Shown one piece after another: positions 21,530 through 56,642 of a DNA stretch of 64,000 bases (position 1 is the first letter of the stretch; every line of letters begins with the position of its first letter). A program made the translations under genes and the position numbers. Origin of the DNA: Chloroflexota bacterium (GTDB taxonomy: Bacteria > Chloroflexota > UBA11872 > VXOZ01); the NCBI GenBank assembly GCA_965221905.1, contig OZ244922.1:2048001-2112000 (forward strand). Direction: 5' to 3'. Under the pieces are notes generated by a model that was not told the origin of the DNA, did not search any database, and worked only from the letters and a program-made list of their open reading frames with translations.

Positions 21530-23392
21530 GTGGCTGACGATAACTCCCAAGAATCTGATAGTGGCGATCCTCTTGACGGGGTAATGCGAATCATTAGAGA
21601 GATTGCCGAGAGGTCAGTGGACGGTGACTATCTCTACCGGGGTGAACCAAAGCATTACCGTCGCGTGTCATCGAGCCTTTACCGAAGACGCGAAGAAATC
21701 GAGATGGAAGACTTAGACATCAACATCGCCCAAACTGAGATTCTGAAAGTCGCAAGGACTTTTGTTGGTCACGCCGATGATGAGCGAATATTGACACAAC
21801 TTCAACACTACGGCTCTGCTACCAACTTGATTGATTTTACCACTGACAGCCTAATAGCGCTGTTCTTTGCTTGCGATGGGGAGCCTTCAGAGAATGGAAG
21901 GGTCCTTCTACTGATCAAGTCGAAGTATCCTTGGATGCCACCGCAGTCGCCTGAGAATCGCGCGATCGCCCAGAGAAGTGTTTTTGTCCAATCACCGAAG
22001 GGATATGTGATACCAGACAAGTCGGTGTGTGTGCCTCATATGCTAAAGGGAGAGATTCTCGAGTATCTTAGGAAACATCATGGTTTGACAGTTGCAGCAA
22101 TCTACAATGACATTCACGGCTTCATTCGCTATCACGAAGGTCGCGAGAGTGCCTATATTGAGTTCTATGCGGGGAAAACCCATCAGGAAAAGGGGGAAAA
22201 TGCGAAGGCGATTGATCGTTACAGCAACGCAATTGCACTTATTCCGCAACTGCATGGAGCCTTCAACAACCGTGGTACAGTTTACGCCACAATGGGCGAG
22301 TACCGACGCGCAATTCAAGACTACGATAAGGCCCTGAAACTAGATCCTCTTTACGTTGGCAGTTATGTTAATCGCGGCAATGCCTACCTGCAGTTGGATG
22401 AATCAAAAGCTGCGTTTGACGACTTTAAGAGTGCTATAGAAATTGAGCCAACCTACTCTGAAGCGTATTGCAGTCGTGGTGCTGCACATATTAAAACTGG
22501 CAACTATGAACTCGCTATACGCGACCTAGATAGGTCGATAGAGCTTCGCCCTCACTATGCGGAAGCTCTTGTATTTCGGGCCATGGCATATGCGCAGCAA
22601 GGGGAATCTGAACGCGGTTCTCAAGACCTCGACAAAGCCATAGAATTAGACCCAGACTACGCGGATGCATACGAGCATCGAGGAAGATACCTAATCGACA
22701 AAAGAGAGAAAGACCGGGCAATTCAAGACTTTAGCAGGCTATTGGAATTGAGGCCCAATTCCGCGGTCGCACATAACGGTCGTGGTATCGCTCTATTGCT
22801 CAAGAATCAGATCGACCGCGCCATAGATGACTTTGATAGGGCGTTAGAGATCAACCCCCAATTTGCTGAAGCACTCTGTGGCCGCGGAGATGCCTACTGC
22901 GCGAAGAGAGATTATGGTACTGCAATCCAAAACTACAGTTCGGCAATCGCGATAGACCCAAATTATGCGAACGCTTACAACAATCGGGGTAACTCCCGTA
23001 GATATCGGGGAGAGTTCGATAAAGCAATTCAGGACTTCAACAGAGCACTAGAGCTCAAAATCAATGACCAGGTTGCCACTTATAACAATCGTGCCCATAC
23101 CTTTAGCGAAATGAAGAAGTACGATTGCGCAATTCAAGACTACACTAAGTCCATTCAATTGAGGGCTCAAAATCCGGAAGCCTACTTTAGCCGGAGCATG
23201 TGCCGATTGATCCTGAAGCGGTGGAAAGGTGCCCGGAAGGACTTAATTGCAGCAAGCAAGCATGGTTTCGATATAAAGGCTGAGTTCCGAGACACTTTCG
23301 CGAGCGCGGCCAACTTCGAAAGACGTTTCGAAGTTAAGTTGCCTCCTAATGTTGTAGCTATGCTTTCGCCCGCTAGCAATGCGAAGGGATAG
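21530..23392 (+). CDS. FRG domain protein with a long TPR array
   Basis: 'YLYRGE', 'LQHYGSATNLIDFTTDSLIALFFACD', 'NRAIAQRSVF'; roughly ten or more 34-aa TPRs ('AFNNRG...AIQDYDKALKLDP'). Confidence 0.88.
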   Translation: MADDNSQESDSGDPLDGVMRIIREIAERSVDGDYLYRGEPKHYRRVSSSLYRRREEIEMEDLDINIAQTEILKVARTFVGHADDERILTQLQHYGSATNLIDFTTDSLIALFFACDGEPSENGRVLLLIKSKYPWMPPQSPENRAIAQRSVFVQSPKGYVIPDKSVCVPHMLKGEILEYLRKHHGLTVAAIYNDIHGFIRYHEGRESAYIEFYAGKTHQEKGENAKAIDRYSNAIALIPQLHGAFNNRGTVYATMGEYRRAIQDYDKALKLDPLYVGSYVNRGNAYLQLDESKAAFDDFKSAIEIEPTYSEAYCSRGAAHIKTGNYELAIRDLDRSIELRPHYAEALVFRAMAYAQQGESERGSQDLDKAIELDPDYADAYEHRGRYLIDKREKDRAIQDFSRLLELRPNSAVAHNGRGIALLLKNQIDRAIDDFDRALEINPQFAEALCGRGDAYCAKRDYGTAIQNYSSAIAIDPNYANAYNNRGNSRRYRGEFDKAIQDFNRALELKINDQVATYNNRAHTFSEMKKYDCAIQDYTKSIQLRAQNPEAYFSRSMCRLILKRWKGARKDLIAASKHGFDIKAEFRDTFASAANFERRFEVKLPPNVVAMLSPASNAKG

Positions 23393-25360
23393 CTAGAGGT
23401 CGCCCTACAGGTGCACTTACGTCCTAGTCTCCTTCCGTCCAGCCAAATGCATGGCAGACTTTGCGTCACTCTGTATGAGTGCTTCGAGGAACTCGAGCCC
23501 AGGTTGCTGGATGGGTGTTGTGCCGAGGGGCACGGCAGCATCTGGCCCTAGCGGTCTACGATAGTTGTGGTGTCGCCGGCTTTTAAGGCGTTCATGTAGG
23601 CGCGGATGAGGTTGCGGGTGCGGTAGCGGTTGAAAGAGGCTTCGTCTTGGCGGCGGACGATGGGGAAGGTGCTCAGGATGTAGTCGGCGTCCTCCCGCGA
23701 GATGCCGTAGAGGTGGAAGTAGAGGGCGTCCAGGCGGGCGCGCAGGTGGCGGCGGTCTTCGTCGTTCCAGATGAAGGGCGGGCCGCCGTAACCCAGGTCG
23801 CGGGCGAACGGCGCCATGTCGTGGGCGGTGTACGTGAGGCGCAGCACGTGGTCGCGGACGAGGTCGCGAGCGGTCTTATCCCCGAATTGGCGGTCGTAGT
23901 CCTCCGGCGCGATCACGGGCAGTTGCTCGATCATAAACAACTTTAGATGAGTGCCCGGTACCTTTTGCCGTGAAACAAAATCAAATACAAAAGCATTGAA
24001 ATTCCCTAGCAAGCATGCAATGTCAAGAGCGAGTAATTGGTCCTTATCAGGAAGCAGGAGGGCCAGTGTATCCGAACAGCCAACTTGAGGTACAACTGTA
24101 GATGTCATCGTGCGGGCATTTGTCGCCGCTGTTATCTCCTTGAATGCTAGCATGAATTGCAATTGCTGGGTTTCAACTCTCTCACGCTGATTAACCCAAA
24201 ATCGAGGACTTGCAGTGAAGCGGGAATCTTGATGCTGTTTCTCAAGCGTTGGGACTGGCTGTCCAGGCCGAAACAAGTTGTCACTCCGAGTAATTATCGA
24301 AGCAGCACGATGGTCGAACGCTTGTACGGTCTTTCCTTCGAATAGTGGCAGACAAGAGTCGTCACCTTTCTTCCATCGATTGAATTCAACAGGGTAAAAC
24401 CCGTCTCTGTCCAACTGCTCCGCCGTGCGGAACAACTTCGAGTCGTTCTGCGAATGGAAGAGTCCTTGCCGATACTTGACCGGCCAGGTCTTGTGCTCTG
24501 TGCCGTCGGAGCGGTTGACGAGCACGGGGTGGCGGGCGTAGATGTCGCGGGTGATGTCGGCGTCGCGGCGGGTGCGGAATACCGGGGAGGTGCCGGTGTT
24601 GGGGTTGACGCGGGCAAAGTCGTCCGGCGCCAGCGGGAAGCAGCGGTCCTCATCAGTGATGGTCTTGGTGTCGTGGAGGAAGAAGGCGCACGCGGTGGCG
24701 TCGAATTGCCGCTGCGCGCCGCCAAAGATGAGGGCGCAGAACTTGAAAGAGGCGTGCACGTCCTTGAAGAATATCTTCCTGTTTTCAAAGTCGTACAGCC
24801 CGGCCACGCGCCCGCGGGTGGAAACCGACTTGAAGAATTTTGCCGCGGTCAGATCGGCGTAGATACCGGACGGGGTGAGCAGGCCGACCAGACCCTCGGC
24901 CTTGACCAGGCGCATGGCGCGCTCCACGAAGAGCGAATAGAGGTTTATGTCGCCGCCGCCTAGCAGTGGATAGTGACCGGAAGCCCGCACCAGCCGGCCC
25001 AAACTGTCGGCGCGCCCTTTGGCGTCATCGAAATCAGCGGCCAACGGATCGCCCTGCGTACGCAATTCGCCAATGGCGGCCCGGCGCGCCGCCGCGGTGG
25101 GGGCGCGGGCGAGTTCCGGCGCGCGGGTGGCAAACCACTCCACTTCCTGCAGCTTGATGCGGTCCCAGGGCGGGTTGCCGATCACGGCGTCGAATCCGCC
25201 GCGCGGGTGGGCGTCCTGCCACTGCTTCCACACCCCGGGAAAGGCCGCCTCCCAGTGCAGAAAGGTCTCGCGGTCGGCGATGGCTCTGGCGTTATGCCAG
25301 AGATTGGCGAATTCGGTGGCGCTCTGTATGTTGTCCGGCGTTGGCGGATTGTCCCCTTGG

Positions 25361-25445
25361 CCGGACGCAGGTTGCAAACCTACGCTACCGGACGCAGGTT
25401 GCGGACCCGCGCTGCCGGACGCAGGTTGCAAACCTGCGCTACCGG
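25361..25445. repeat. Three 27-bp palindromic tandem repeats inside the RM gene
   Basis: CCGGACGCAGGTTGCAAACCTGCGCTA-like units at 25361, 25388 and 25415, read as SGSAGLQPA. Confidence 0.9.
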
Positions 25446-25466
25446 AAGATGCTGCGTCAGGAGAAG

Positions 25467-25495
25467 ATGGATTCCGGCTTTCGCCGGAATGACGG
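25467..25495. repeat. REP-like palindrome inside the RM gene
   Basis: TGGATTCCGGCTTTCGCCGGAATGACG hairpin, read as RHSGESRNP. Confidence 0.85.
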
Positions 25496-27932
25496 TCACT
25501 GGGTGCACGGGAATGAGCGATGTCATCCGTTGTTTGAGACTCAATTGCGTCGGGCCCGTGGGCCAGGAGCTTGAAGGCGTCGTTCGGCTGTCGGCCGAGG
25601 GTCTCGAACAACGAGGCCTCAAAGAGGGTGCGTTCCTGCTTCTTCATGCCCGCGGTCAGCCAGCGCAAGCCGCAGAGCACGTCGAGCACACTGCGGAGGT
25701 CGGCGGTGGTATTTTCCACTTCCCGGAACAGGGTCGCGGACTCCCGCACCTCGGCCACGTCGGCATCGGAGAGCAGTTCGATGTGCTCCATCCCCTCAGC
25801 GGCTGTCTCAGCGCCGGCAACGGCGGACTGCACAAACAAGCCGCCCATGCGATTCAGTTCGTCCACGGCCTCCTCCACGCGCAGGCCGAGCAGCGAGTCG
25901 CCGCAGCGCAGGTGGTGGTCCAGGAACGAAAGCGGCGCGCCCACGGTGAAACTATGCAGCCAAAGCGAGACTTTGGCCAGCTCCACGGCCAGGGGGTTCT
26001 TGTCCACGCCGTAGATGCAGCGCTTGAGCACCATGCGCCGGATGATGGCTTGGTCGGTGAGTTGCAGCTTGTCGATTGCCCAATCCGACTCACGCGCCCG
26101 CTGCAGAATTTCTTCCCGAATTACCGCAATGCGCTCCACCAGCGGCGAAACGTAGGCGCTACCGCAGCCGTCGTCCAGCCATTCCGGCACGGCAGGCACG
26201 TATTCGACCATGTGGGCGATCTCGTCGGAGAGATAGTCCACGGCGGTCACCAGGAAGTGGCCGCTGCCCATGGCCGGATCGAGAATCTTCAGGTCGAGCG
26301 CGGCCACCGCCGGGTCGAGCGCCTCCAATTCCTGGCGGCGCTCCGGCTTGGGGCGATGATCGCTTCTGAGCTCCTTTGCTCGAGTCTCAAACGCCTTGAG
26401 GCGCTCCTCCACCAAAGGTTCAAGAGTCTTTTCCACGATTAGGTCGACGAGTTCCTGGGGCGTGTAGAAACTGCCGCTGTCCTTGCGGGCGTAGGGGTTG
26501 GGCCGCATGATGATTTTGCCGTCATCGCCGCGCACCGGCTCCTGTTCCAGCAGGCGCTCGTAGATTGAGCCGAGCTGTTGCACCGACATGTCGCGATAGT
26601 TGACGAAAGAGCGGACGCTGTCGCCTTTGCGCGCACTGCGCGTATGGCTGAGGTCATAGATGATGCCGGCGATAACCGAATCCGGCAAGCGGACGTGCTG
26701 CAAAAGCGGCGCGGAGTCCGGGGCGAAGAGCCCGCCGTTGTAGGGAGGGAGGCCGATAGAAGGATCGCCGCGGTCGATAAGCCTGAACAGCGTGTTGAGG
26801 CGGTCGTAGTAGTTGGTTGCCGCGCTGGAGAAGGTATCGCCAGTCTGCATGCGCGCGGCAACGTCGTCGCGCACACGCTTGCGCAGGCCGTAATCCGTCA
26901 TAGCGCGAATCGTTGACCGGCAAGAGGCCGCGGTCCTCGGCGTAGAGAATGAAGAGGAGCCTATAGAGGAATATGAGAGCCGCGTGACGCACCGCCGTGA
27001 AGTCATCACTGGGATCGCCTTCTGCGGCATAGCGATCCGCAAGCGCTTCGACCAAGTGGGGGAATACGCGCGAAAACACAACTTCCGAGAGGTCTGCGGC
27101 CACCCGCTGCTCATAGCGCTTTCCTTCCGCGATCGCATCTTCCAGGAAGGTAGTCGCCGCGCCCTCTTGCGCTATGAATGATTCGCGCCTGAAGAGTAGG
27201 AAGATCGCGCGGAGGGCGTGGTCGTCGTCCTGCTGCAAAAGGGCTTTCAGGTCCGCTTCGTAAAAGCCGCTGGCACGGGGACGGGCGCGGAAATCGTAGA
27301 GCCGCCAGACTGCGCCGTTGGTCAAGATGCCCCAGCGGATGCGACCGTCGGTCACTTTATCTGCCGTGTCGAGATACCTGAGAATCTGGCCGTGAGGGGT
27401 GCCGCGGCGGGTGGTTTCACCGCTGTCGCGGTTGTCGAGCGGCAAGCCGAAGCGTTTGCTCTCCTCGATTACAAGGGCGTCTTGATAGCGATTTTCGGAA
27501 CCCTCGCGCGCTGCGGCCCTGTCCTTCGCCTCCCCATCGGCAAAGAGCAGGTAATCGGGAATGTCCTCTTGGCGGTCTGAGCCTTGCTGGGGCATATGGT
27601 TGTCCCAGCCTAGCAATTCCAGGAGCGGACGCACCACCTCGTTTTCAGTTTGTGCCTCGTTGGGTTCGTGAGCGGAGGAAATCTTATCCAGAATTTCGCG
27701 CAGGGATTGCTTGAACGCGGTAAATGTCAGCGGCTGCCGCACGCAATCCTGCCAGGCATCGGTTGCCTGGATGCCTTCGGTAAGGAAGTATTGTGTGAAG
27801 AGTTGACCGATCATGGCGATGATTTCAAACTCTCAGCGAGCATCGCGAGTAACAGATTGCAGAGCCGGCCCCAGGACTAGGACTGAGGCGTGGGTGAGTC
27901 TTTTGCTGGAGGCGAATGGCAACAAGCCTGAT

Positions 27933-28121
27933 CTATTGCTTTTGCAGCCATCCGCGGACGATCCAGAATAGGTTGGCGAGTGCGATGGCTATGGCGGCGA
28001 CCCAGAGGGCGGTGCCGAGAGTAGGATTTGCCGCCAAGCCGATGCCTTGTCCGAGAAAGAAGACGATGACCGCCACCACGAAGAGCACGATATGGGCGAT
28101 TTTCTTAAGCTTTTTCCGCAT
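27933..28121 (-). CDS. Small two-TM membrane protein (62 aa)
   Basis: Basic N-terminus, two hydrophobic helices, GGAG RBS. Confidence 0.6.
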   Translation of the reverse strand: MRKKLKKIAHIVLFVVAVIVFFLGQGIGLAANPTLGTALWVAAIAIALANLFWIVRGWLQKQ

Positions 28122-28259
28122 GGTTCCACTCCCATAGCGTAGGTGCGGGAAACGACGAATCGGACTCACCCAGATGTTAGCAACACCTCAATGGTACCAG
28201 AGGGTAGGGAACGCAACTGCGCGTAGACAAGCATCGAGCCGGGCATGGGCCGGGGCAGG

Positions 28260-29276
28260 TCACGCCAATTCGGCCTTCGTAGACGGGAGCAGGCGCATGC
28301 GCACGTCCACCTCCAGGATGCTGCTAACGAAACCGTTGAGAATGCCTTTGGAAGGGGGCACGTCTTGATAGTCGCGTCCCACAGCGATAGAAACGTGGTG
28401 GTCTCCGGCAAGGGTCTGGTTGGTGGGATCGAAACCAACCCAGCCGAGGCCGGGCAACCGGCACTCTACCCATGCGTGGGTGGCGCTCTGCGGCGTCTGC
28501 GACGACGTCTGCGTCTGCGACAAAGTCGGCGTCTGCGACAGAGTCTGAGTCTGTGACAAAGTCAGCGCGTGCTCACGGGATTCACCCGAAACGTGCACGT
28601 AGCCGGATACATAGCGGGACGGCACGCCCCAAGAGCGCGCAACAGCAATCATGACGTGGGCGTAGTCCTGGCAGACACCCCGCCCGGTCTCCAAGATGTG
28701 GTCGATGGGGGAGGCCACCGAGGTGCTGCCAGGAACGTAGTCGAAGACGTGATGCAGCTTCTCGGACAGCATTCCCACAGCCTGCAGAGGGTCGTCGGCC
28801 GGCTCGATGCCTTCACGCTGGATGAAGGAGGAGAGGGCGGGCGACGACTGCGCTAACGGGCTGTCATGGGTAAAGTCCCAAAGCGCAAAAGAGTGCTGCC
28901 AGGCTTGAATCTTGTCCCATGCGCCGGAATTCAAAGAGCCCGGTAGCTGGGCCGCAGGTCCGGTTTCAACCGAAGAGCGGGCCACAATCTCGAGCGACTC
29001 GTGCCGCTGATGCACGCTAAAGACGTGCCTTGTGTTGCCGTAGGGGTCTGTTGCTGTGCTTAGTGTGGAGAGCGGGTGCGTGGAAAGATCGAACTGCAGG
29101 AGTTGCTGTCTCACGCTTTCGCGCGGTCTTAAACACAGGGACATCACAGAGTACCACGCCGGTGAGGCATAGCGGTAGCGGGATACGTGCTCTATCTCAA
29201 AGCGGTTCGATCTGGCGATGCGACCACTAGATTCTGCACTGTGTTCGGAGCGGCTGGATAAACTCGAGTCGGCCAT
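28260..29276 (-). CDS. Transglutaminase-like family protein
   Basis: 'IEHVSRYRY' N-domain; catalytic Cys 'GVCQDYAH', His 'THAWVE', Asp 'GFDPTN'; 'GRDYQDVPP'. Confidence 0.92.
   Translation of the reverse strand: MADSSLSSRSEHSAESSGRIARSNRFEIEHVSRYRYASPAWYSVMSLCLRPRESVRQQLLQFDLSTHPLSTLSTATDPYGNTRHVFSVHQRHESLEIVARSSVETGPAAQLPGSLNSGAWDKIQAWQHSFALWDFTHDSPLAQSSPALSSFIQREGIEPADDPLQAVGMLSEKLHHVFDYVPGSTSVASPIDHILETGRGVCQDYAHVMIAVARSWGVPSRYVSGYVHVSGESREHALTLSQTQTLSQTPTLSQTQTSSQTPQSATHAWVECRLPGLGWVGFDPTNQTLAGDHHVSIAVGRDYQDVPPSKGILNGFVSSILEVDVRMRLLPSTKAELA
28491..28562. repeat. Four 18-bp in-frame tandem repeats (TLSQTQ-like)
   Basis: Units at 28491, 28509, 28527 and 28545. Confidence 0.85.
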
Positions 29277-29283
29277 GAGGTCA

Positions 29284-30249
29284 TTATACGGGAGAGTCTT
29301 CGACATGGTAGTCGAAGTAGGTCACCGCAATCAGGTCGTGAAGGTCCCGGCAAAAGGCGCCCATCTGTCGCAAAGCCTGTTCACGGTCTTCCAGGTCGGG
29401 CCAATCGTAGCGGATTAAGGACACGAGCCGACCCGCCAGCCGCCGCGTCGCGCCACTGGAATCCGCATTTGGCCCGGGTCCGATAGCGTCAAGTTGCTGT
29501 CCCACGATATCGAGCGAAAAACAGAGGGAGTCGGGGAGCAGCGGATCTGTCACGAGCAGATCCAAAACATGGTTAGGGTGAACCTCCACGCTGTAGCTGC
29601 GGTTATAGACCTCCAAGGCGTGGTATGCGCGCAGCAAGCTAACCCAGTCAGCTTCGGAAGACTCCTCAAAGTGCACTTCGGAGGCAAGTTGCGCCAATAG
29701 CAGCGAAATCGTGATCTGGGCCCGCTCGATCAAACGACCGAGTTGCAGGAAGTGCCAACCCTCGTCGCGGTACATTGTTGCTGCAGCCACACCCATGAAG
29801 GTGTCGATGTCTGCGGTCACCCCAGCGTAGAAACTCTCCGGAGACGTGGACCAAATATCTTGTATGTCCCGATTCTGGAGCTGAAGATAGACAAGGTTTA
29901 GGTGCGACCACATTTCCGCGCTAATGCAGTTTCGCGTTTGACGGGCATTCTCTCGCGCTGCGGCGAAGCAATTCCACAGCGAGCCAAGATTCGAAGGCTC
30001 AAACGTCAGGTCGTCGGCAAGGGTATACGAGTCCGCCAGCGTGAAGTCATCACTGTCGCTGAGTTCGAGACTGCCGCCAGGCGTCAACCGGTCGACACTT
30101 ATGTAAATGCGACTCCAGCCGAAGTAAATTTCCTGGACAGGGCGATCCACCAGAGCCGCCGTCTGCAATTGCAGAAAGCGGCTGAGGTGTTGCGCCCGTT
30201 CCAAGTAGCGCCCCATCCAGAAGAGGCTTTGTGCGCTTCGTGAGAGCAC
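29284..30249 (-). CDS. Alpha-E domain protein (DUF403)
   Basis: 'MLSRSAQSLFWMGRYLERA', 'ARENARQTR', 'LGRLIERA' ER motifs. Confidence 0.92.
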   Translation of the reverse strand: MLSRSAQSLFWMGRYLERAQHLSRFLQLQTAALVDRPVQEIYFGWSRIYISVDRLTPGGSLELSDSDDFTLADSYTLADDLTFEPSNLGSLWNCFAAARENARQTRNCISAEMWSHLNLVYLQLQNRDIQDIWSTSPESFYAGVTADIDTFMGVAAATMYRDEGWHFLQLGRLIERAQITISLLLAQLASEVHFEESSEADWVSLLRAYHALEVYNRSYSVEVHPNHVLDLLVTDPLLPDSLCFSLDIVGQQLDAIGPGPNADSSGATRRLAGRLVSLIRYDWPDLEDREQALRQMGAFCRDLHDLIAVTYFDYHVEDSPV

Positions 30250-30279
30250 GTGTGCTTAATTCCTTAGCTCAGGTAAACG

Positions 30280-31677
30280 CTAGTCCTCATCATGCTCTTC
30301 AGGCATCAGCACAAATTCGGGATAGGCCTCAAGGCCCAACTCGGCGGTGTCCTGACCCAGACGCTCAGCTTGCACCGAAACACGCAGGCCGAGGGTCAAT
30401 CCTATGACCTTCCAGAGGATCAGCGAAACGATGAAGACGAATGCGCCAACTGCTAGAACACCAATGAGCTGCACAACAATGTCGCCGCCTGCGACAATGG
30501 CAACCGCCAGCGTGCCCCAGATGCCTGCCATCAAGTGAGCGGGGATTGCGCCAACGACGTCATCGAGCTTGACTTTTTCAAGCAGTTTGAGACCTAGGGT
30601 GCAGATGATGCCGCCGATAGCGCCGATTATGACCGCCCAGTAGTGTTGAGTGATGTCGGGGCCGGCCGTAATCGAGACGAGTCCTGCAATGGCTCCGTTC
30701 AAGCCGGCGAAGAGGTCAGTGCGTCCGAGGAGCGGCCGCGAGATTATGAGGGCGGCCATAACACCGGCTGCTGCCGCGAGGTTGGTGTTTACCAAAATGT
30801 GGCCGATTGAAATCGCGTCGGCTGCGCTGCCCAGCGCCAACTGCGAGCCGCCGTTGAAACCAAACCAACCAAGCCACAGGATGAAGACGCCCAGAGTCAC
30901 CAACAAGACGTTCGAAGGCGACGTTAGCCTGACTGAACCATCCTTGCGGTACTTGCCAAGCCTGGGTCCGACGATAATCACACCCGCCAGGGCTGCCCAG
31001 CCACCTGTACTGTGCACGATGGTTGAACCGGCGAAATCCTGGAAACCCATTTCAGCCAGCCAGCCGCCGCCCCACGTCCAAGCGCCGACTACGGGGTAGA
31101 TGACGGCGGTTAGAATTATTATGAAGAGGAAGAACGACCACATCTTGACGCGCTCTGCCAGGGCGCCGGATATGATGGATGCCGTGGTCGCTACGAAGAC
31201 CATCTGGAAGAACCAGTCCGACATGACCGAGTAGCCGCTCTCGATTACGGCCGCCGCGGCGCCCTCGTTACCATCCAGCAATGCTAGTTCGTCAGATGAA
31301 GGCCCATAGAGCAGATTGAAAGAGCCGATCAAGCCCCATAGCCGGTCCCCACTCACGTCCACGTACATCAGGTTGTAGCCGACGAAGAAGTAGGCTAGAC
31401 CGGCGATAGAGTAGAGGCCGATATTCTTTAGGCAAATCATTGAGGCGTTCTTGGTGCGTACCGCGCCGGCTTCGAGCATGGTGAAGCCCGCTGCCATCCA
31501 CATCACCAGTACACCCCAAATGAGGAACGCGAAGGTATTTAGGACAAATGCAGTCTCGCCGTCGGTTGCTGCCTGGGCGACGGGCGGTCGGAACAAGAAA
31601 TAGAGAAACGTCAACAGCAGCACCGCCGCGATGACGGCAATACGCCGATGGCGTGCAAGTACGTCCGTGAATACCAT
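30280..31677 (-). CDS. amt: Ammonium transporter (Amt), intact, with signal peptide
   Basis: 'GFTMLEAG', 'FFQMVF', 'DFAGSTIVH', 'GWFGFNGGS', 'DDVVGAIPAH'; twin His and Phe gate present. Confidence 0.95.
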   Translation of the reverse strand: MVFTDVLARHRRIAVIAAVLLLTFLYFLFRPPVAQAATDGETAFVLNTFAFLIWGVLVMWMAAGFTMLEAGAVRTKNASMICLKNIGLYSIAGLAYFFVGYNLMYVDVSGDRLWGLIGSFNLLYGPSSDELALLDGNEGAAAAVIESGYSVMSDWFFQMVFVATTASIISGALAERVKMWSFFLFIIILTAVIYPVVGAWTWGGGWLAEMGFQDFAGSTIVHSTGGWAALAGVIIVGPRLGKYRKDGSVRLTSPSNVLLVTLGVFILWLGWFGFNGGSQLALGSAADAISIGHILVNTNLAAAAGVMAALIISRPLLGRTDLFAGLNGAIAGLVSITAGPDITQHYWAVIIGAIGGIICTLGLKLLEKVKLDDVVGAIPAHLMAGIWGTLAVAIVAGGDIVVQLIGVLAVGAFVFIVSLILWKVIGLTLGLRVSVQAERLGQDTAELGLEAYPEFVLMPEEHDED

Positions 31678-31706
31678 AAGCTCTCTCTCCTTTGAGACAC
31701 TAAGCA

Positions 31707-33170
31707 TCAATCATCATCAACCACCCAGAAGTCTTTGCCACCTCCCCCCTGACTAGAGTTGACTACCAAGCTACCGCGGCGCAGAGCGACGCGACAGAGT
31801 GCCCCAGGTACTATGCGGGTCTCGCGGCCGTGCAGCACGAACGGACGTATGTCCACGTGACGCGGCTCGAAGCGGCCGTCAATGAAGCACGGCGCGCGAG
31901 AGAGCGCGAGCACCGGCTGTGAGATGAACCCGGCTGGGTCCGCGCGCAATTGCTCGGCGTATTCCTCACGCTCCTTAGGGGATGCGTGGGGGCCGATAAG
32001 CATGCCGTAGCCACCGGATTCACCGACACGTTTTACCACTAAATTCTGTAAATTGTCAAGCGTAAACTCCAGATCTTCACGCCGCCTGCAGAGGTAAGTA
32101 GGTACGTTTGCAAGGATCGGCTCTTCATGTAAGTAGTAGCGGATCATGTCAGGCACGTAGGCATACATGCTCTTGTCATCCGCTACACCAGTACCCGGAG
32201 CATTCACCAGGGCAACATTGCCAAGCTTGTACGCATGGAGCAGGCCCGGTACCCCAAGCAGTGAATCCGGGCGAAATACAAGCGGGTCCAAGAAGTCATC
32301 GTCCACACGCCTGTACACCACGTCGACTCGCCGCAAGCCCGCGGTAGTGCGCATATAGACATAGCCATCGTTCACCAATAGGTCACGACCCTCCACGAGC
32401 TCCGCTCCGATCTCGCGGGCCAGGAAGATGTGTTCATAAAAGGCGGAGTTGTAGACGCCCGGGGTCAACAACACGATGGTGGGATTCGATTGTCCGCTCG
32501 TTGCGAGCTCTCGGAGCGTTGTCTGGAGCACTTGGCCGTAGTGTTCGATCTCCCGGACGCGAGACCTTCTATACAGACGGCGAAAGCTCTTCTTCACCGC
32601 CTCGCGATTTGCCAGCATGTAGGAGACGCCGGAGGGAACCCGCAGGTTGTCTTCAAGCACACAGAAGCCGTCGCTGGTCCGCACAATGTCGGAGCCGCAG
32701 ATAGCAACCCATGTGCCGTGGGGGGCAGAAAACCCGCGCATTTCGACCCGGTACTGGGGACATCCACGCACCATGTCTACGGGGATTACACCGTCATGGA
32801 CGATGCTCGGTTCGCCATAGAGATCCTTGCTTCTGGATCTTCCGTAGACGTCTTCCAAGAAGCTATTCAGCGCTTTTATTCGCTGCGTTAATCCCGCCTC
32901 GATTACTTGCCAATCTGAACCTGAAAGAACGCGAGGGAGAGAGTCGATCGGAATAATGCGCTCGTCGGCCTCATCGTCGCCGTAGACCGTAAACGTGATG
33001 CCTTCGTTGGAAAATGAGCGGGTAACCCGTTCCTGGATTGTCGCCAACTCTTCGGGTGAAAGCTGGCAAAGCAGTTCGTGAAGGTCTCGACTGTGTTCCC
33101 GGGGAGTGCCGTCCGACAAGAACATCTCGTCGTAGACGTCGGCATCAAGTTGATAGTCTTCAAAGTTCAC
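31707..33170 (-). CDS. Circularly permuted type 2 ATP-grasp protein (DUF404/407)
   Basis: 'YDEMF', 'GITFTVY', 'VLEDNLRVPSGVSY', 'YRRVDDDFLDP', 'GTGVADDK', 'VVNSSQGGGGKD'. Confidence 0.95.
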   Translation of the reverse strand: MNFEDYQLDADVYDEMFLSDGTPREHSRDLHELLCQLSPEELATIQERVTRSFSNEGITFTVYGDDEADERIIPIDSLPRVLSGSDWQVIEAGLTQRIKALNSFLEDVYGRSRSKDLYGEPSIVHDGVIPVDMVRGCPQYRVEMRGFSAPHGTWVAICGSDIVRTSDGFCVLEDNLRVPSGVSYMLANREAVKKSFRRLYRRSRVREIEHYGQVLQTTLRELATSGQSNPTIVLLTPGVYNSAFYEHIFLAREIGAELVEGRDLLVNDGYVYMRTTAGLRRVDVVYRRVDDDFLDPLVFRPDSLLGVPGLLHAYKLGNVALVNAPGTGVADDKSMYAYVPDMIRYYLHEEPILANVPTYLCRRREDLEFTLDNLQNLVVKRVGESGGYGMLIGPHASPKEREEYAEQLRADPAGFISQPVLALSRAPCFIDGRFEPRHVDIRPFVLHGRETRIVPGALCRVALRRGSLVVNSSQGGGGKDFWVVDDD

Positions 33171-33528
33171 GGCTCATCTCGCTTACCGGGTTTGAATGGC
33201 TCATTGCCAGTGTCATAGCACCATGTCAGTCGTGCACCACTAGCACTCCACATTCCATAGTCGAGCGTTCAGAAAACGTGTCGGCCTCGCCAGAACAGTA
33301 GCAAAACAAGCACACAATTTCAAGCCTTCGCAATTCTGCGTCAAGCTTGTGGAATATCTGGCTGATAGCAACTAAAATGCAAGTTCGCTCAAGCGCCATG
33401 TGTCAATACCAATTGCGCCCGGCATGGGAGCAACTTGGCGATAGACACCAACTAGCCCGGTGCTCGCGGGTAGAAGGAATCCAATTGGCCGATCAGCACA
33501 TTGCCCTGATTAGACCGCACTCCCAACG

Positions 33529-35694
33529 CTATGCTTGGACCGGCTCTTCATCGGCACCCTCTCCAATAACCACGGGCGCAAGAGGGATTTCGATTGTCAT
33601 TTCGGTAAATTCGCCGGGTTCGGATTCGACGCGGATAGTGCCGCCATGGCGCCGCACAATGTCGCTGGACATGGCAAGACCAAGGCCGGTGCCTTGGTCG
33701 GTAGGCTTTGTAGTAAAGAAGGGATTGAACATCTTCTCAACAACGTCCGGTGGCATGCCGGTGCCATTGTCTTTGATGCGGAATTCGGCAGACTCGTCAC
33801 CTCGCCGCGAAGAGAGCCAGACTGTGGGGCTATAGTCCGTGGCGCCATCCGTTTTCTCGATGGCACGCCTTCTCTCATCGGTAGCGTCGCAGGCGTTGCT
33901 TACCATATTCAAGAAGACGCGGCCCATGTCCTGCGGAATGACTTCGATCTCTCCCATATCCGGGTCGAGGTCTTGCTTCAAGTCAAGCTGGAAATCCGAA
34001 TCGGTAGCCCGCTTGCTGTGGTAAGCGAGGCGTGCGTGTTCATCCAGAAGGTTATTGACATTCGTGGGCTGCTGTCCGCCGGTGCCCCGGCCCATGGAGA
34101 GCATGTCATGCACAATGCGGTTAGCGCGTTCTCCGTGCGAATGAATGCGTTCGAGGTTGCCTGTGAGATCACCGGAAATCTCTGCGATGAGGTCGCGGTC
34201 CTCAGCGCTCAACTCGCCTCCGTTTTCACTGAGAACCTCTCGCAATTCTTCAAGCAGGTCTGCTGAAGACTCGGAGAAATTCTTGACGAAGTTTAACGGG
34301 TTCTTGATCTCGTGGGCCACACCTGCGGTGAGCTCACCGAGTGCAGCCAGCTTCTCGCGCATTACGATTTGGTCTTGCGCTCTTCTCAAGTCAACCAACA
34401 CGCTTTCAAGCTGTTCATTCTTTCCCTGTAACTCGTCTGCAAGCTTCTCAACCAGATTCAAGCGCTGCACTTCCAATGCGTGACGACGGAAGACTTCCAG
34501 AGCTGAAGCCATTTCCGCTACCTCGTCGCGGCCACCAATCTCGACCTGGGCCTCCAAGTCGCCACCGGCCATATCGCGCATCCAACTTGAAAGCATTTCA
34601 ATTCGGCGCACCACGACCCGGCCAACGAAGAGCCACACGATTACCAGGGCGCCGCCAATACTGATGATGCCGATGGCAAGCAGGAGAAGACGACCGGTTA
34701 AAATTGCCTGCGTGGACGCTTGGGTGGCTTCCTCTACACTGTCGGACGCTGCGCTTACCAGGCCTTCCACCTCGCCCAGGAGTTCGTTGGCCAGATCGTT
34801 GTTGCTTGCCAACAAAGAGTTCTGGTGCTCGACGAGCCGCAGTTGCCGGGCGCGTAATTCAAATACGCTCTTCAACTCCAACAATTCGTCGAAGATAGGG
34901 GCAAGTTCGGCATAGAATGGCGCGTCCAGAAGCGCAAAGAGACTCCGCTCAATCTGGCTCTGAGCGGACTCGAATCGCTCCCTTAAAGGCTCGACTGAAG
35001 CCGCATCTGAAACCACATAGGAGTTTGCCAAAAGCTCGGTGGCAATGTTAGCTTGCGTGCGCAAAATCTCTAAGTGGCGATACCGATTGAATTCTTCTTC
35101 AGAGAAGTGGTCTGCGCGCGGCGCTGCGGCTTCTCCGATGGCACGAAAACCTGTGATCAAGTAGAAGATCTGGTCGTCAATCTCGGGGACCAAGACTTCG
35201 TCCAGGCCGCTGCGCAGGTTTGTTAGTGCATCACGCAACTGCTCACTTTGCCTATTCAGTTCAAACGACTCGGACATCCCGGTTTCAACGGCGCCGATGT
35301 TAGAAATGAGGGCATCGGCGCGGGCACGAACGCGCGCAAATCGTTCATCCGCTGAATCGGCCTGCTCCAAGACAGCCAATTGCTCCTCAAGGGCGGCATG
35401 CGCTTCGTCGATACTGGCAGCTACGCGGTTGAAGTCCGCGGGCGACGCAGCGCTCGCGAGCCGTGGAGCAGCGGCCTCTAACGAGTTACTGTGCTGTGCC
35501 ACCCTAAAGGCGGCTACCATTTCCGGCACGCTTCCTTCGTTTACCTGGCTCTGGACTTCACCAACGCGATTGAACGAAAACCACCCCACGAGACTGGCCG
35601 CAATGACAAGCGTCACAGCGCCGCCAATGCCCAAATAGAGCTGCGTTGATATCCTGTAACGGCTTTCGAGCAAGCCCCGAAATTGTTCAATCAC
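33529..35694 (-). CDS. Sensor histidine kinase with TorS-like helical extracytoplasmic domain and HAMP
   Basis: TM - long helical domain - TM, HAMP 'GRDEVAEMASAL', 'AHEIKNPLNF', 'DNGTG', 'PFFTTK', 'GTGLGL'. Confidence 0.9.
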   Translation of the reverse strand: MIEQFRGLLESRYRISTQLYLGIGGAVTLVIAASLVGWFSFNRVGEVQSQVNEGSVPEMVAAFRVAQHSNSLEAAAPRLASAASPADFNRVAASIDEAHAALEEQLAVLEQADSADERFARVRARADALISNIGAVETGMSESFELNRQSEQLRDALTNLRSGLDEVLVPEIDDQIFYLITGFRAIGEAAAPRADHFSEEEFNRYRHLEILRTQANIATELLANSYVVSDAASVEPLRERFESAQSQIERSLFALLDAPFYAELAPIFDELLELKSVFELRARQLRLVEHQNSLLASNNDLANELLGEVEGLVSAASDSVEEATQASTQAILTGRLLLLAIGIISIGGALVIVWLFVGRVVVRRIEMLSSWMRDMAGGDLEAQVEIGGRDEVAEMASALEVFRRHALEVQRLNLVEKLADELQGKNEQLESVLVDLRRAQDQIVMREKLAALGELTAGVAHEIKNPLNFVKNFSESSADLLEELREVLSENGGELSAEDRDLIAEISGDLTGNLERIHSHGERANRIVHDMLSMGRGTGGQQPTNVNNLLDEHARLAYHSKRATDSDFQLDLKQDLDPDMGEIEVIPQDMGRVFLNMVSNACDATDERRRAIEKTDGATDYSPTVWLSSRRGDESAEFRIKDNGTGMPPDVVEKMFNPFFTTKPTDQGTGLGLAMSSDIVRRHGGTIRVESEPGEFTEMTIEIPLAPVVIGEGADEEPVQA

Positions 35695-36965
35695 TGTTCT
35701 ATATCTCGTAGTGAACTCACAGGCTGGTACGTGCCGTCCGGGCCGATCATAGTAAGGAATACTGAATCTGATCCCTGGTTGTCGTCCGAACCATAGTTAA
35801 GTTCAAATTCGCTTAAGTCGATCACCCCAGTATTTCGTATGCTATCGAGAAAGCACTCTCGCGTGAGCTGCGGGCCGCACCGCTCAAGCCCGGCGATTGC
35901 CAGGCGCCCGGCAAGGTAGCCCTCTAGTGAAACAAAGCTGGGATCATGCCACGAAGACAATTCGCGAATGGCGCGAAGGTAGTCCTTGACGATTTGTTTG
36001 GAGTCGTCTGTTGGGAACGGAACCACCTGTGTCACGAACACTCCTACTCCCGCAGGGCCAAGTTCTTCCGCCAAGGCGTTGCTGCCGACAAAGGAAACGT
36101 TCATGAAAACCGGGTCCAGACCAATGTGCCGTGCCCAAAGGATAAGGGCGGCAACCGGCTTGTATGCGCCAATCATAATCACCGCTTCGGGATTACCGCG
36201 ACGGAGATCGAGCAAGGCCGCCTTTACAGCAGTGGTGTTGCGCGTATAGACGCCAATTGACACCATTTCCATGTTTCGCTTATCTAGGGCCAACCGCACC
36301 CCGTTGAAGCCGGCGCGACCGTAAGAATCGTCCTGATACAACACACCGATACGCGTGACGCCCAAGTCGATGGTCAGTCTTTCGACCATTTCTTCGGTCT
36401 CTTGATAATAAGAGGCGCGCATATTCACTACATTGAAAAGGTCTGAATTGCGCAGGAATTCGGCGCCGGTGAAGGGGGCAATGTAGGGGACACCCGCTTC
36501 ATAAGCAACCGGCACCGCAGAGCGGGACGTCGGCGTGCCAACGGCTCCGATGAGGGCGAATACATCGTGCTCTTCTATGAGCATTCTGGTGTTGGCAATA
36601 GCGGCTTCCGGTTCGTAGGCATCATCAGATATGAGCAAAACAAGCTCCCGCCCATGGACGCCGCCCTTCTGGTTGACTTCATGGAAAGCGGCCCTAATGC
36701 CGAATTCCATGTTAGTACCAAGCTCTACAGCGGGGCCGCTGAAGGCTGCGGATTGGCCAAAGAGAATCTGGTCGTCGGTGACGCCGGGAGCAGCAGACTG
36801 GGAAGCATCGGCTGCGGTCACTGGCGTTGCTGTTGCAACTACTGACTCGCCATCTTGGGCAGGTGTGGAGCAACCCACGAGAATAGCGGCAACGACAAAC
36901 CCACCAATGACCCTCACCATTGCATTGAATAGTGGGACCGTCGGCAGGCGGTGGGCCCTCTTCAT
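35691..36965 (-). CDS. Type I periplasmic-binding-fold lipoprotein (LivJ-like), no cognate permease nearby
   Basis: 'ILVGCS' lipobox, 'GQSAAFSGP', 'DDAYEP', 'GAVGTPT', 'NMRASY', 'YQDDSYG'. Confidence 0.88.
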   Translation of the reverse strand: MKRAHRLPTVPLFNAMVRVIGGFVVAAILVGCSTPAQDGESVVATATPVTAADASQSAAPGVTDDQILFGQSAAFSGPAVELGTNMEFGIRAAFHEVNQKGGVHGRELVLLISDDAYEPEAAIANTRMLIEEHDVFALIGAVGTPTSRSAVPVAYEAGVPYIAPFTGAEFLRNSDLFNVVNMRASYYQETEEMVERLTIDLGVTRIGVLYQDDSYGRAGFNGVRLALDKRNMEMVSIGVYTRNTTAVKAALLDLRRGNPEAVIMIGAYKPVAALILWARHIGLDPVFMNVSFVGSNALAEELGPAGVGVFVTQVVPFPTDDSKQIVKDYLRAIRELSSWHDPSFVSLEGYLAGRLAIAGLERCGPQLTRECFLDSIRNTGVIDLSEFELNYGSDDNQGSDSVFLTMIGPDGTYQPVSSLRDIEQ

Positions 36966-37381
36966 TTGGCTATACTCGCAACCATTGTTAGATGATTCTT
37001 GCCCTGTTCCCGTCGATAGCGCACGTCATCCATTATTTTGCGCACAAGATGGATGCCTAAACCGCCTATGCTTCTATCCTCTAGCTCACCGGTCACATTG
37101 GGTTTAGGAGCGTCATGCAACGGATCAAAGGGCCGACCGTCATCAACGATCTCTATCGTGAGGGCGTTCTCATCAGAAAATAGTGATATTTCAATTTCAT
37201 GCAGACCATCGTCATGACCGTAATTCATGACGTTGATTACTACCTCTTCTAAGGCCAAGTTCACCTTGAATACGAGATCCAAAGGCCAATCCGCTTGCAG
37301 GCCGAAGTCCTCTATGGCTGTCGAGACCCGGTCTAACTCATCTTGTTTGGTCTCGACCTTTAGGTGCAATTCTGTACCCAC
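36962..37381 (-). CDS. RsbW/SpoIIAB-like anti-sigma factor Ser kinase
   Basis: 'LALEEVVINVMNYG', 'DDGRPFDP', 'GGLGIHLV'; GTG start at 37381 coupled to the upstream stop. Confidence 0.9.
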   Translation of the reverse strand: MGTELHLKVETKQDELDRVSTAIEDFGLQADWPLDLVFKVNLALEEVVINVMNYGHDDGLHEIEISLFSDENALTIEIVDDGRPFDPLHDAPKPNVTGELEDRSIGGLGIHLVRKIMDDVRYRREQGKNHLTMVASIAK

Positions 37382-37382
37382 T

Positions 37383-38543
37383 TCAAGACTCGCTACGGTA
37401 AATGGCCAAGCAGGTGATATCGTCAGATTGAGGTGTATCGCCGGCAAAGTCGCTTACAGCTTGGAAGACCGCTTCGTTTGCTTCTTTGGGGTCTCGAGGA
37501 GGATTGGTCGCGAACACTTCCTGCAAGCGTTCTACCCCAAACTCCTCTTCTTGGGCATTCATGGCCTCGGTGACACCGTCCGTGTAGAGGAATGCGAGAT
37601 CGCCGGGAGCCAAGCTTATCGATTGCTGCTGATAGGGCATATCCGGCACCACTCCAAGCGCGATGCCTCCTGTTAGTGGAAGCAGAGATGAGCTCCCGTC
37701 GGGATGCACAATGAGAGGACTGTTATGTCCTCCGTTGGCGTAAGTGAATTCACCGGTTGACGAACTATACACCGCATACAGAATCGTGACGAACATTCCT
37801 GTGTCATTGTCTTCATGGAGCAGATCGTTAACCTCACCCAGAACTTGACCGGGCTCTCCCATGCCAATGGCAGAGCCTTTCAAGAGAGTGCGGCTAGACA
37901 TCATAAAGAGAGCGGCCGGAACGCCCTTGTCGGAGACGTCCGCAATAGCAACGCCGACAAGGCCGGCATCCAAAGTCAATACGTCGAAGAAGTCTCCACC
38001 GACGTTGCGGGCCGGCTCCATGCTGGCGTAAATCTCAAAGTCAGTACCTCGGGGGAAGTCAGTGGGGAGGATTGATTGTTGGATTTGACTGGCAACGTTC
38101 AGCTCGTTCTGCAACGCGACAAGCTTATCGCGCGACGAGAGCGCCTCACGCCACTCAGTCATATGACTCAGAGTGCGATCGATAGTGATTTGGAGGTCCG
38201 CAAAGTCCAGCGGCTTGGTGACGAAGTCGAAAGCGCCTCGATTCATCGCCGTCCGGATATTCTTCATATCCCCGTAAGCTGAGACGATTACGGAGCGAAT
38301 GTTGGGATCAACTTTGGGAATCTGCTCAAGCAGTGTCAAGCCGTCCATGCGCGGCATATTGATATCGGACAGTACCATATCAATTTCATTATCTTCATTG
38401 AGGCGTTCCAGCGCTTCTATGCCATTCTGAGCAAATACAAATGTATACCGCCCTGCTCTAATGTGGCGCCGCATCCGCTGCAACATGAGCGGCTCGAGAT
38501 CCGGTTCATCGTCGACAACGAGGATCTTATAGGGTGGTTCCAT
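37383..38543 (-). CDS. Response regulator fused to a SpoIIE/PP2C phosphatase (RsbU/RsbY-like)
   Basis: REC 'VVDDE..LSDINMP..TKP'; PP2C 'VGGDFFD', 'ADVSDKG', 'YTDGVTEA', 'SDDIT'. Confidence 0.93.
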   Translation of the reverse strand: MEPPYKILVVDDEPDLEPLMLQRMRRHIRAGRYTFVFAQNGIEALERLNEDNEIDMVLSDINMPRMDGLTLLEQIPKVDPNIRSVIVSAYGDMKNIRTAMNRGAFDFVTKPLDFADLQITIDRTLSHMTEWREALSSRDKLVALQNELNVASQIQQSILPTDFPRGTDFEIYASMEPARNVGGDFFDVLTLDAGLVGVAIADVSDKGVPAALFMMSSRTLLKGSAIGMGEPGQVLGEVNDLLHEDNDTGMFVTILYAVYSSSTGEFTYANGGHNSPLIVHPDGSSSLLPLTGGIALGVVPDMPYQQQSISLAPGDLAFLYTDGVTEAMNAQEEEFGVERLQEVFATNPPRDPKEANEAVFQAVSDFAGDTPQSDDITCLAIYRSES

Positions 38544-38636
38544 CGTTTCCTTTCCACAAGAACTACATTAGCAAGCCCAATAGGTCCTTCCTATTAGCTG
38601 GCCAGAGTTCTCAACACTGCGAAAGAATGGGGTGAG

Positions 38637-38975
38637 CTAGTTCTTGAGTGCGTCTATTGCCTCATCTCGAGAGTCGTGAACTGCAATGATCTGATCGAAA
38701 CCGCTAATCTCGAAGATTTCGCGGATTGACTCAGAAAGAGAGCATACAGCGAATCTGGCATCCTGCTTTTGGAGAGACTTGGCGGTTAATAGGATGACCC
38801 GCAGCCCAGCACTACTTATATAAGAAACTTCCTCCAAATCCAAGACAACGGCTCGCTCGCTCGCGTCTATCGCAGCATCTAATGCATCCTGGAATTCACG
38901 GGCATTAGCACCATCAATGCGACCGTCCGTCTTTGCGATTAAGGTATTGTCCTGCCGCTCGGTGGTAACTCCCAT
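38637..38975 (-). CDS. STAS anti-anti-sigma factor (RsbV/SpoIIAA-like)
   Basis: 'GRIDG', 'VLDLEEVSYISSAGLRVIL' with the phosphorylatable Ser. Confidence 0.93.
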   Translation of the reverse strand: MGVTTERQDNTLIAKTDGRIDGANAREFQDALDAAIDASERAVVLDLEEVSYISSAGLRVILLTAKSLQKQDARFAVCSLSESIREIFEISGFDQIIAVHDSRDEAIDALKN

Positions 38976-39196
38976 TGGGCACTTCTCCTAAGTGTTGCTA
39001 TTCGGCTCTTGGCTGATCGCAATGCGTGAACGACAACCGCCGGTTTCGAAACCGGCTTTGCGTTTCACCTCACAGGCATTCCCTCCACTGGATGTAATGC
39101 AATCGGCTCGTTTTCTACCGATAGTACAAGCGTCTCCTGATCCTAGGAAATACTATACCATTTCCGATTATAGGGGTATGGCAAAGAATGCAAATG

Positions 39197-39517
39197 CTAC
39201 TTTGCAGACTCCCCGGTCTCCGCAGGCATAACCTCAGATATCCAAACCCGTGAATATCGGGACGGATCGGATGCGCTAGCACGACGAATGGCAGCAGTGG
39301 CTTGCTCGACTATGCCATCTTCTACTATCGCCTCGATCTTCACCATGGGCAGGAAGTCAATCTTGTATTCGACACCACGCAGAATCTCCGAATGGCTCAC
39401 CTCTTCTCTGAAGCCTTTGATGTCGATTGCGCTGACACTCGTGACCCCAAGCTTCACTAGGGCTTCATATACAATGCTTACCCTATCCGGTTGAACCCGT
39501 GCCACGACTAGTTTCAT
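39197..39517 (-). CDS. PII-family nitrogen regulator, degenerate GlnK-like
   Basis: 'MKLVVARVQP', 'KGF', 'RGVEYKIDFLPMVKIE'; directly downstream of amtB. Confidence 0.8.
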   Translation of the reverse strand: MKLVVARVQPDRVSIVYEALVKLGVTSVSAIDIKGFREEVSHSEILRGVEYKIDFLPMVKIEAIVEDGIVEQATAAIRRASASDPSRYSRVWISEVMPAETGESAK

Positions 39518-39538
39518 TGTCTGTGTCCTTATGCTTCT

Positions 39539-56336: not shown

Positions 56337-56411
56337 GTTTCAGTTGGAGTAAGAGCAGTTAGGTTACACGTACCGATCCAGTAGAGGTCACAGTAAGGAG
56401 AAGAGGATTTC

Positions 56412-56642
56412 ATGGAACCGGAAACTGCTGCAAAGTTGGCTGCGGGAATTGCCATGGGCGTCGGCGCCATCGGTCCCGGTTTGGGTATCGGTATCGCCGT
56501 TCGCGGCGCGATGGAAGCAATCGGCCGCAACCCGGAAGCAGCGAATGACGTGCGCAACACCCTTATCATCGGCGCGGGCTTGGCGGAAGCAATCGCCATC
56601 TATTCGTTGCTCACGGCAATTCTGCTTATCTTCCTCGGCTAA
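56412..56642 (+). CDS. atpE: ATP synthase F0 subunit c
   Basis: Gly-rich helix, 'GRNPE' loop, 'LAEAIAIY'. Confidence 0.97.
   Translation: MEPETAAKLAAGIAMGVGAIGPGLGIGIAVRGAMEAIGRNPEAANDVRNTLIIGAGLAEAIAIYSLLTAILLIFLG

Follow-up and report, generated by a model that had tools for sequence, protein, structure and literature searches.

The locus analyzed here raises the question of why the gene of an ammonium transporter (Amt) is located between the genes of a circularly permuted (CP) ATP-grasp ligase and of an alpha-E protein. The locus is part of a stretch of 64,000 nucleotides (nt) from a Chloroflexota bacterium (assembly GCA_965221905.1, contig OZ244922.1, 2,048,001-2,112,000, forward strand), called the window below, and consists of a row of four minus-strand genes: CP-ATP-grasp, amt, alpha-E and a transglutaminase-like gene. 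An earlier note, made from the sequence alone, had proposed that this order directly links the ligase to ammonium flux, with ammonium or glutamate captured on alpha-E and released by the transglutaminase-like enzyme. The gene context is real and conserved, and it is apparently unpublished. It strengthens the nitrogen link of the ligase set; a direct coupling of Amt and ligase is not supported. The row is probably one nitrogen-scavenging transcript, and Amt likely occurs inside the enzyme set because both belong to one nitrogen cassette with a reshuffled order. The nested position would then be one of several, and no hand-over of ammonium to the ligase would be required.

The four-gene row and its proteins

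The CP-ATP-grasp stop codon is found 29 nt ahead of the Amt ATG (31677), a start served by an AAGGAG ribosome-binding site, and 30 nt separate Amt from alpha-E. The intact Amt and the gaps of about 30 bp reported in the earlier note are indeed there, with complete pore residues. The longest transglutaminase frame overlaps alpha-E by 23 nt. All four genes are under purifying selection, the ratio of nonsynonymous to synonymous substitution rates (dN/dS) being 0.03-0.24 against five congeners, and 0.03-0.04 for CP-ATP-grasp. The row is not a chance arrangement, because of these ratios and because 30 of the 61 genomes of the class that were searched retain the nested order.

The Amt protein scores 527.6 bits on TIGR03644, the marine subtype (cut-off 514). 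Its pore set is complete: the Phe gate F157/F161, W202, D214, the twin His H222/H381, F274 and S278. W202, S278, F161/F274 and H222/H381 are invariant across the Amt alignments. The residue roles follow Escherichia coli AmtB numbering, a correspondence that we presume to hold. The nested Amt is likely a conventional importer of ammonium. Its C-terminal tail reads EAYPEF-VLMP-acidic, with positions 452-459 conserved at 89-100% in 55 aligned clade members, and the protein ends about 12 residues past YPEF, with no fused transducer domain, a feature that is typical of ammonium receptors though not universal among them. A pattern search for the tail matched 84 of the 113 extracted Amts; two of the others carry close variants, and all 27 alphaproteobacterial relatives, most of which adjoin glnK, lack it. 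In a FastTree phylogeny, the tail clade forms one branch (61/68 rows), in which ligase-linked and unlinked rows interleave. A role as ammonium receptor, like that of Sd-Amt1, was considered and rejected: the N1/N2 signature QX6EX15NX2D[F/T]... (PMC11152129; here and below, statements on published work refer to the accessible part of each paper) is matched by 0 of the 113 Amts, and in the nested Amt, the Gln is replaced by Ala62 and the Asp by Leu88.

The ligase is closest to the solved structure 3N6X (E 1e-162), with a match over the full length, and keeps the active-site motifs LEDNxRxPSG, VVK, QxV, D440-R442 and VNSSQGGG. Its closest named relatives are Chloroflexota records. The alpha-E protein carries two ER motifs, E17-R18 and E175-R176, both invariant in 12 alignment rows. 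Its predicted model is all-helical, with a predicted local distance difference test (pLDDT) score of 85, and a fold search with it gave no specific solved match but generic helical bundles only (best Z 10.4). In the transglutaminase-like protein, nearest to structure 3ISR, the triad Cys212-His277-Asp293 is invariant in nine alignment rows. Between its Cys and His, a Ser/Gln/Thr insert of 24 residues, made of roughly SQTQT units, is encoded at 28460-28545 (minus strand); such an insert is found in the genus (L037) and is absent from other lineages.

The absence of an Anbu peptidase beside the row, reported before, extends to the whole genome (99.6% complete): the PF00227 profile gave zero matches, against positive results in 10 of 14 controls, Synechococcus elongatus among them, and tblastn with an Anbu-type protein (PF00227) from L240 gave no hit. 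The idea that such a loss is unusual was rejected. COG2308 in genomes without Anbu has been described by Valas and Bourne (PMC3235984), and of 32 control regions around ligases of other clades, 11 contain Anbu and none was seen in 21. No locus of the Amt-linked ligase clade holds it.

Position of amt in other genomes

Among the 61 class genomes, 53 have a CP-ATP-grasp match. The nested order occurs in three families, i.e., in all 17 genomes of the genus (g1), in 9/9 of genus g5 and in 4/4 of genus g8, and in one additional Acidobacteriota record (L053); it is thus not a singleton, the outcome named in the earlier note as damaging to its case. Two of the regions counted here, from G014 (contig end) and G044, stop after alpha-E. 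Five g10 genomes have amt upstream, on the same strand and 0.5-3.8 kb from the ligase, and amt is unlinked in family f4, G021, G029 and G041. In the genus, the nested Amt is the sole Amt match in 13 of the 17 genomes and the sole intact Amt in 14.

A scan of a genome collection with Amt gave at least 609 candidate stretches, of which 79 loci were kept. Among the matches listed, 52 of these 79 form one Amt clade (at least 67% identity) spread over several phyla and several named sponge-symbiont taxa, and 13 of the 52 are ligase-linked; the other 27 are alphaproteobacterial, mostly beside glnK, with no linked locus. The habitat is read from taxon names alone; in a run labelled as sponge metagenome, only 0.06 of the words were present. 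A further observation is a pair of tandem Amts of the tail clade (L095:6001-8947), in a record titled Thermodesulfobacteriota.

Three linked orders exist. Among the 13 linked loci, the nested one is found in L053 and in the Chloroflexota loci L060, L061, L062 and L092 (L061 repeats L044). Five Gemmatimonadota loci have amt upstream of CP-ATP-grasp, alpha-E and transglutaminase, and in three Vicinamibacterales loci, amt is downstream of CP-ATP-grasp and alpha-E. Unlinking is frequent: a ligase is encoded elsewhere in 44 of the 50 genomes with unlinked Amt loci (50 of 66 such loci searched, 38/39 of the clade and 12/27 others). The position of amt inside the ligase pair is hence not special, as it is also found before, after or away from the pair. 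Moreover, the junction between ligase and alpha-E accepts unrelated genes: a PD40 beta-propeller gene in L211 (6928-8324), and HicA with an aspartyl-protease gene in L213 (7238-8450), two loci with ligases 80-81% identical. Immediately ahead of alpha-E, L211 and L213 also have sequence in common, possibly a promoter of alpha-E's own.

No Amt was found in the 32 control regions (3.5-18 kb) around other-clade ligases, which are 43-57% identical to those of the window's subclade. The Amt-linked ligases are all contained in a single subclade (39 of the 67 rows), which also includes unlinked members; the support in this quick tree is 99 in the Shimodaira-Hasegawa-like approximate likelihood ratio test (SH-aLRT). 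Many independent captures of amt are not supported, as every linked ligase is in this subclade.

Transcription and the signalling module

A sigma-70-type promoter is predicted upstream of the ligase gene (Table 1). Its footprint is kept in 7/7 aligned upstream regions of the genus while the flanks diverge, and it has no counterpart in L230 and L231, two loci with a short gap to the kinase gene. A scan for consensus promoters found none and also missed this TTGAAA-17-TACTGT element. Terminator-like sites are at chance level (7 vs. 5.0 +/- 2.2), and no shared motif was seen by eye upstream of glnII, gltB, amtB, STAS and CP-ATP-grasp.

The RNA evidence consists of contigs of two studies, which contributed four metatranscriptome runs. 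Both Amt junctions were checked and are bridged, that of ligase and Amt by X16 record 11 and X17 record 20, that of Amt and alpha-E by X15 record 1, X16 record 9 and X18 record 25. Contig ends at 33301 and 33318 are slightly beyond the predicted start site and so do not map the start. The stretch 40976-42000 is uncovered in the four runs; it may be missing from those strains, which makes it a weak control.

Table 1. Main features of the locus, with positions in the window
Feature	Position	Strand	Evidence
Predicted sigma-70-type promoter, TTGAAA-17 nt-TACTGT, 125 nt before CP-ATP-grasp start	33295-33323	minus	footprint
CP-ATP-grasp ligase (circularly permuted, DUF404/407 type), 487 amino acids (aa)	31707-33170	minus	PF14403 509.6 bits, PF04174
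Amt, marine subtype, 465 aa	30280-31677	minus	PF00909 335.7 bits; TIGR03644
alpha-E (DUF403), 321 aa	29284-30249	minus	PF04168
Transglutaminase-like, up to 348 aa, start uncertain	28260-29306	minus	PF01841 + PF08379
HAMP histidine kinase, TorS-like sensor domain	33529-35694	minus	Pfam
Periplasmic binding protein (Peripla_BP_6)	35691-36965	minus	Pfam
RsbW-type anti-sigma kinase (HATPase_c_2)	36962-37447	minus	Pfam; single copy by tblastn
Receiver + SpoIIE/PP2C phosphatase	37383-38543	minus	Pfam; single full-length copy
STAS anti-anti-sigma protein, 112 aa	38637-38975	minus	PF01740; single copy
Degenerate PII-like protein	39197-39517	minus	PF00543 37.5 bits
Second ammonium transporter, AmtB type, broken	39539-40756	minus	in-frame TAA 39770-39772

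A signalling module lies upstream of the row. The histidine kinase is found there in 15/15 other regions of the genus long enough to show it, and the STAS, kinase and PP2C genes constitute an Rsb-type partner-switch set. STAS, with a dN of 0-0.02, is the most conserved gene of the locus and nearly invariant in the genus. A SigB/SigF-type sigma factor was not found in the genome, which encodes a full sigma-70 and, in addition, two divergent region-4 proteins that are sigma-like. Among the loci, every pairing of transporter, ligase set and module occurs: module and Amt without CP-ATP-grasp (L096/L286, L273, L276), module and CP-ATP-grasp without Amt (L199, L200, L206, L210, L221), and Amt and CP-ATP-grasp with no module in the fetched flank (g5, L060, L092, L072, L080). 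In six loci (L070, L074, L079, L081, L085, L276), amt is directly beside STAS.

A STAS homolog is present in 37 of the 38 genomes with an unlinked tail-type Amt vs. 2 of 12 without the tail. Of those 38, 21 have a same-clade ligase, 11 only a more distant one (two of them judged by profile score) and 6 none. In the class (n = 61), Amt and STAS occur together in 42 genomes and are jointly missing from 16; the 3 discordant genomes are fragmented. Neither these counts nor those for the 38 and 12 genomes are independent of kinship. In the class, the tail was checked for the nine unlinked Amts.

The window, L200 and L284 also have the module behind an AmtB-type transporter with a degenerate PII. 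The sole PII match of the genome is this degenerate copy beside the broken amtB, and none adjoins the nested Amt. Its PF00543 score compares with about 100 bits for the canonical PII of family f4 and is far below the NCBIfam cut-offs; in genera g1, g5, g8 and g10, PII matches are weak or lacking. An X1 contig of depth 92, perhaps from the source sample, has the same TAA in the AmtB-type gene, whereas X4, X16 and three congeners carry a sense codon there. Only 4 of the 17 genus genomes contain the AmtB-type gene with the degenerate PII. That tail-type Amts occur only without PII was rejected as a general rule, as PII is present in 33 of the 38 genomes mentioned above.

For ammonium assimilation, the genome encodes a glutamine synthetase (GS) of type II (GSII, NF041605 over cut-off), a type III/GlnT-like ligase, glutamate synthase (GOGAT) and glutamate dehydrogenase (GDH), and a GS-family match is present in 60/61 class genomes. 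A system replacing a missing glutamine synthetase was consequently rejected. GSII (glnII; G000:C1:1438220-1439221, L133) is the assimilatory GS in 13 of the 17 genus genomes, the other four having a GSI-type match. The GlnT-like glutamate-ammonia ligase (G000:C1:2496070-2505724; L132, L165) is beside a sarcosine-oxidase-beta-like gene and near a flavin mononucleotide (FMN) glutamate-synthase domain, a region that we take to resemble the N-methylglutamate (methylamine) pathway. Methylammonium is a possible second substrate of Amt.

The surroundings of the locus contain several other genes. An Eco57I/MmeI-like restriction-modification gene at 23548-27814 (minus strand) is in two frames (26654-27814 and 23548-27138) and probably frameshifted; related DNA borders the operon in several congeners. 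An FRG-domain and TPR protein (21530-23392, plus strand) adjoins a short Fic_N fragment (20920-21366, minus strand), and 41634-42485 (minus strand) encodes a predicted secreted protein of 283 aa that is without Pfam match and contains an internal repeat with Cys. The genes at 55569-61645 (plus strand) are, we presume from their sequence, an ordinary F-type ATP synthase operon, followed at 62294-63574 by what we take to be a murA-like gene.

A probable shuffled nitrogen cassette and its alternatives

The cassette would consist of three parts: the acidic-tail Amt; CP-ATP-grasp and alpha-E, with or without transglutaminase; and the sensor kinase, binding protein and RsbW/PP2C/STAS partner switch. 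It appears to have moved between phyla, and its parts may be held together by shared control through nitrogen status, where canonical PII has decayed or is missing. In favour of this reading are the nested order in three families, the bridged Amt junctions, the promoter footprint, the two other linked orders, the occurrence of every pairing of the parts, the unrelated genes at the junction, the interleaving of linked and unlinked Amts and the presence of GSII, GOGAT and GDH. Judging by the chemistry of the families, the ligase would activate a glutamate carboxyl group, most likely one presented by or on alpha-E, as an acyl phosphate and would then couple it to an amine. The Cys-His-Asp enzyme could cut or deamidate the resulting amide, and the freed ammonia might be recovered by Amt and assimilated via GSII/GOGAT. 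Published work elsewhere connects the ligase genes with nitrogen: dependence on NtrC has been shown for a homologous cluster of Burkholderia cenocepacia (PMC5491218), homologous clusters are reported as the most induced genes of Pseudomonas putida when nitrogen is limiting (PMC3235984), and the three domains have been linked to urea-metabolism domains in marine metagenomes (PMC3597751). Of the interpretation in the earlier note, the recurrence of the arrangement and the bridged junctions stand, together with this nitrogen regulation in other bacteria; its direct link to ammonium flux does not.

Several points weigh against the cassette. No Rfam match or leader (27500-42000) and no nitrogen-regulator box were found, and among the pieces listed, no contig bridges alpha-E and transglutaminase. 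The RNA contigs reveal neither the strand nor whether there is one transcript, and they may include DNA. The nitrogen control in this lineage and the ligase chemistry are what we infer, the latter from the family; for a homolog, phosphate release from ATP is the only activity demonstrated in the accessible part of PMC6376114. Furthermore, the stability of the nested order in three class families and L053 would not be expected from a purely free shuffle, and as the linked ligases fall in one subclade of a quick tree, the recurrence across phyla may reflect one origin and not repeated selection.

Other explanations have to be considered. The module could be in charge of the transporter: the Amt tail would replace GlnK control and dock STAS, the kinase/RsbW/PP2C cascade would gate or read out ammonium uptake, and the ligase pair would be a second output. 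We regard this as unlikely, although it is the most plausible of the alternatives. The restriction of the tail to Amts other than the alphaproteobacterial ones, the concordance of Amt and STAS in the class, the loci with amt beside STAS, the single copies of STAS, RsbW and PP2C with no SigB/SigF-type sigma found, and the fact that STAS tracks the tail-type Amt better than the same-clade ligase does are all consistent with it. However, kinship and habitat confound these co-occurrences, PII persists in most tail-type genomes, and the module, which also stands behind the tail-less AmtB type, is not bound to the tail. The tail might do no more than pack against the adjacent Amt subunit, and the two divergent sigma-like proteins could be partners of RsbW. 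A bolder proposal, to which we give somewhat less credence, takes the 12.5-kb locus as an undescribed nitrogen-sensing circuit that replaces PII/GlnK control and has spread sideways among sponge-type bacteria of many phyla. Through the acidic tail of Amt, the sensor kinase and the RsbW/PP2C/STAS switch, which would lack a dedicated sigma factor, would act on the transporter, and ATP-grasp/alpha-E would be an enzyme arm that amidates or glutamylates alpha-E or the tail.

The model of the earlier note, in which Amt feeds ammonium to the ligase, ammonium or glutamate is fixed on the ER glutamates of alpha-E as a store and the transglutaminase-like enzyme releases it, is improbable. The co-oriented nested order in 30 genomes would suit it, as would the confinement of the linkage to one ligase subclade (13/52 clade loci among the matches listed, 0/32 control regions), the invariant ER and Cys-His-Asp residues and the nested Amt as sole intact Amt in most of the genus. 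Against this, Amt changes position and is often lost from the locus, its junction takes unrelated genes, the linked Amts form no separate branch, and the tail is common to unlinked ones. A CP-ATP-grasp match is lacking in 6 of the 38 tail-type genomes, GSII, GOGAT and GDH are already present in the genome, and genomes without Anbu are common. Nor is the proposed release step constant, since 6 of the 13 linked loci have no transglutaminase in the fetched flank. The least probable explanation is that of a neutral passenger: amt would have landed once, in an ancestor, between ligase and alpha-E under a housekeeping promoter and been inherited, with no shared regulation. The single ligase subclade, the permissive junction and the housekeeping-type predicted promoter with no regulator box found agree with this, whereas the persistence of the linkage in three orders and three phyla, the repeated pairing of Amt or its AmtB paralog with the same signalling module, and the nitrogen regulation of homologous ligase clusters elsewhere argue against it.

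Two mycobacterial proteins that we take to be homologs have been the subject of a study on gamma-aminobutyrate (GABA)-trehalose. The two proteins tested do not make this compound (bioRxiv 10.64898/2026.04.15.718621). The Anbu operon (COG2308, COG2307, COG1305, Anbu; PMC3235984, PMC6376114, PMC5666114) contains the same three families in the same order, broken here only by amt. Common to both are a proposed role in peptide ligation or protein tagging, a reported link to nitrogen limitation and a chemistry still to be solved: according to the accessible part of PMC5666114, substrates for the Anbu-operon proteins were not found, and PMC6376114 lists untested roles for the gene set, including release of ammonia by the transglutaminase. 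Unlike the Anbu operon, the present locus is in a genome without Anbu, has amt between ligase and alpha-E and a partner-switching module upstream, and belongs to a distinct ligase subclade, the clades sampled for the identities given above including Anbu-linked ligases. The cluster BCAM1233-1236 of B. cenocepacia (PMC5491218), dependent on NtrC/sigma-54, has DUF404/407, DUF403 and transglutaminase genes, and in the accessible text, neither Anbu nor an ammonium transporter is named among its four genes; here, on the contrary, amt is present and the predicted promoter is of the sigma-70 type. With the glnK-amtB pair and the alphaproteobacterial marine-subtype Amt (TIGR03644), the nested Amt shares family, subtype and pore residues. 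It differs by having no adjoining glnK, by the additional VLMP-acidic tail and by its neighbours, the ligase pair and the STAS/RsbW/PP2C genes. The receptors Sd-Amt1 (8QJ3) and Ks-Amt5 (6EU6) are the closest solved structures by sequence, and they likewise combine an Amt with signalling genes; unlike them, the nested Amt has no fused output domain and lacks the N1/N2 signature (PMC11152129). In the literature searched, no description of the linkage of amt to the ligase set was met; Iyer et al. 2009 may already list amt.

The CP-ATP-grasp/alpha-E/transglutaminase set is widespread and its product is still to be known; the amt context does not itself reveal the chemistry. The tie of this set to nitrogen rested previously on expression data from a few proteobacteria, and the context adds other phyla. 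It also draws attention to an Amt clade without a neighbouring glnK, which may be regulated by another route, and it names candidate substrates and partners: ammonium, glutamate, the Amt tail and STAS.

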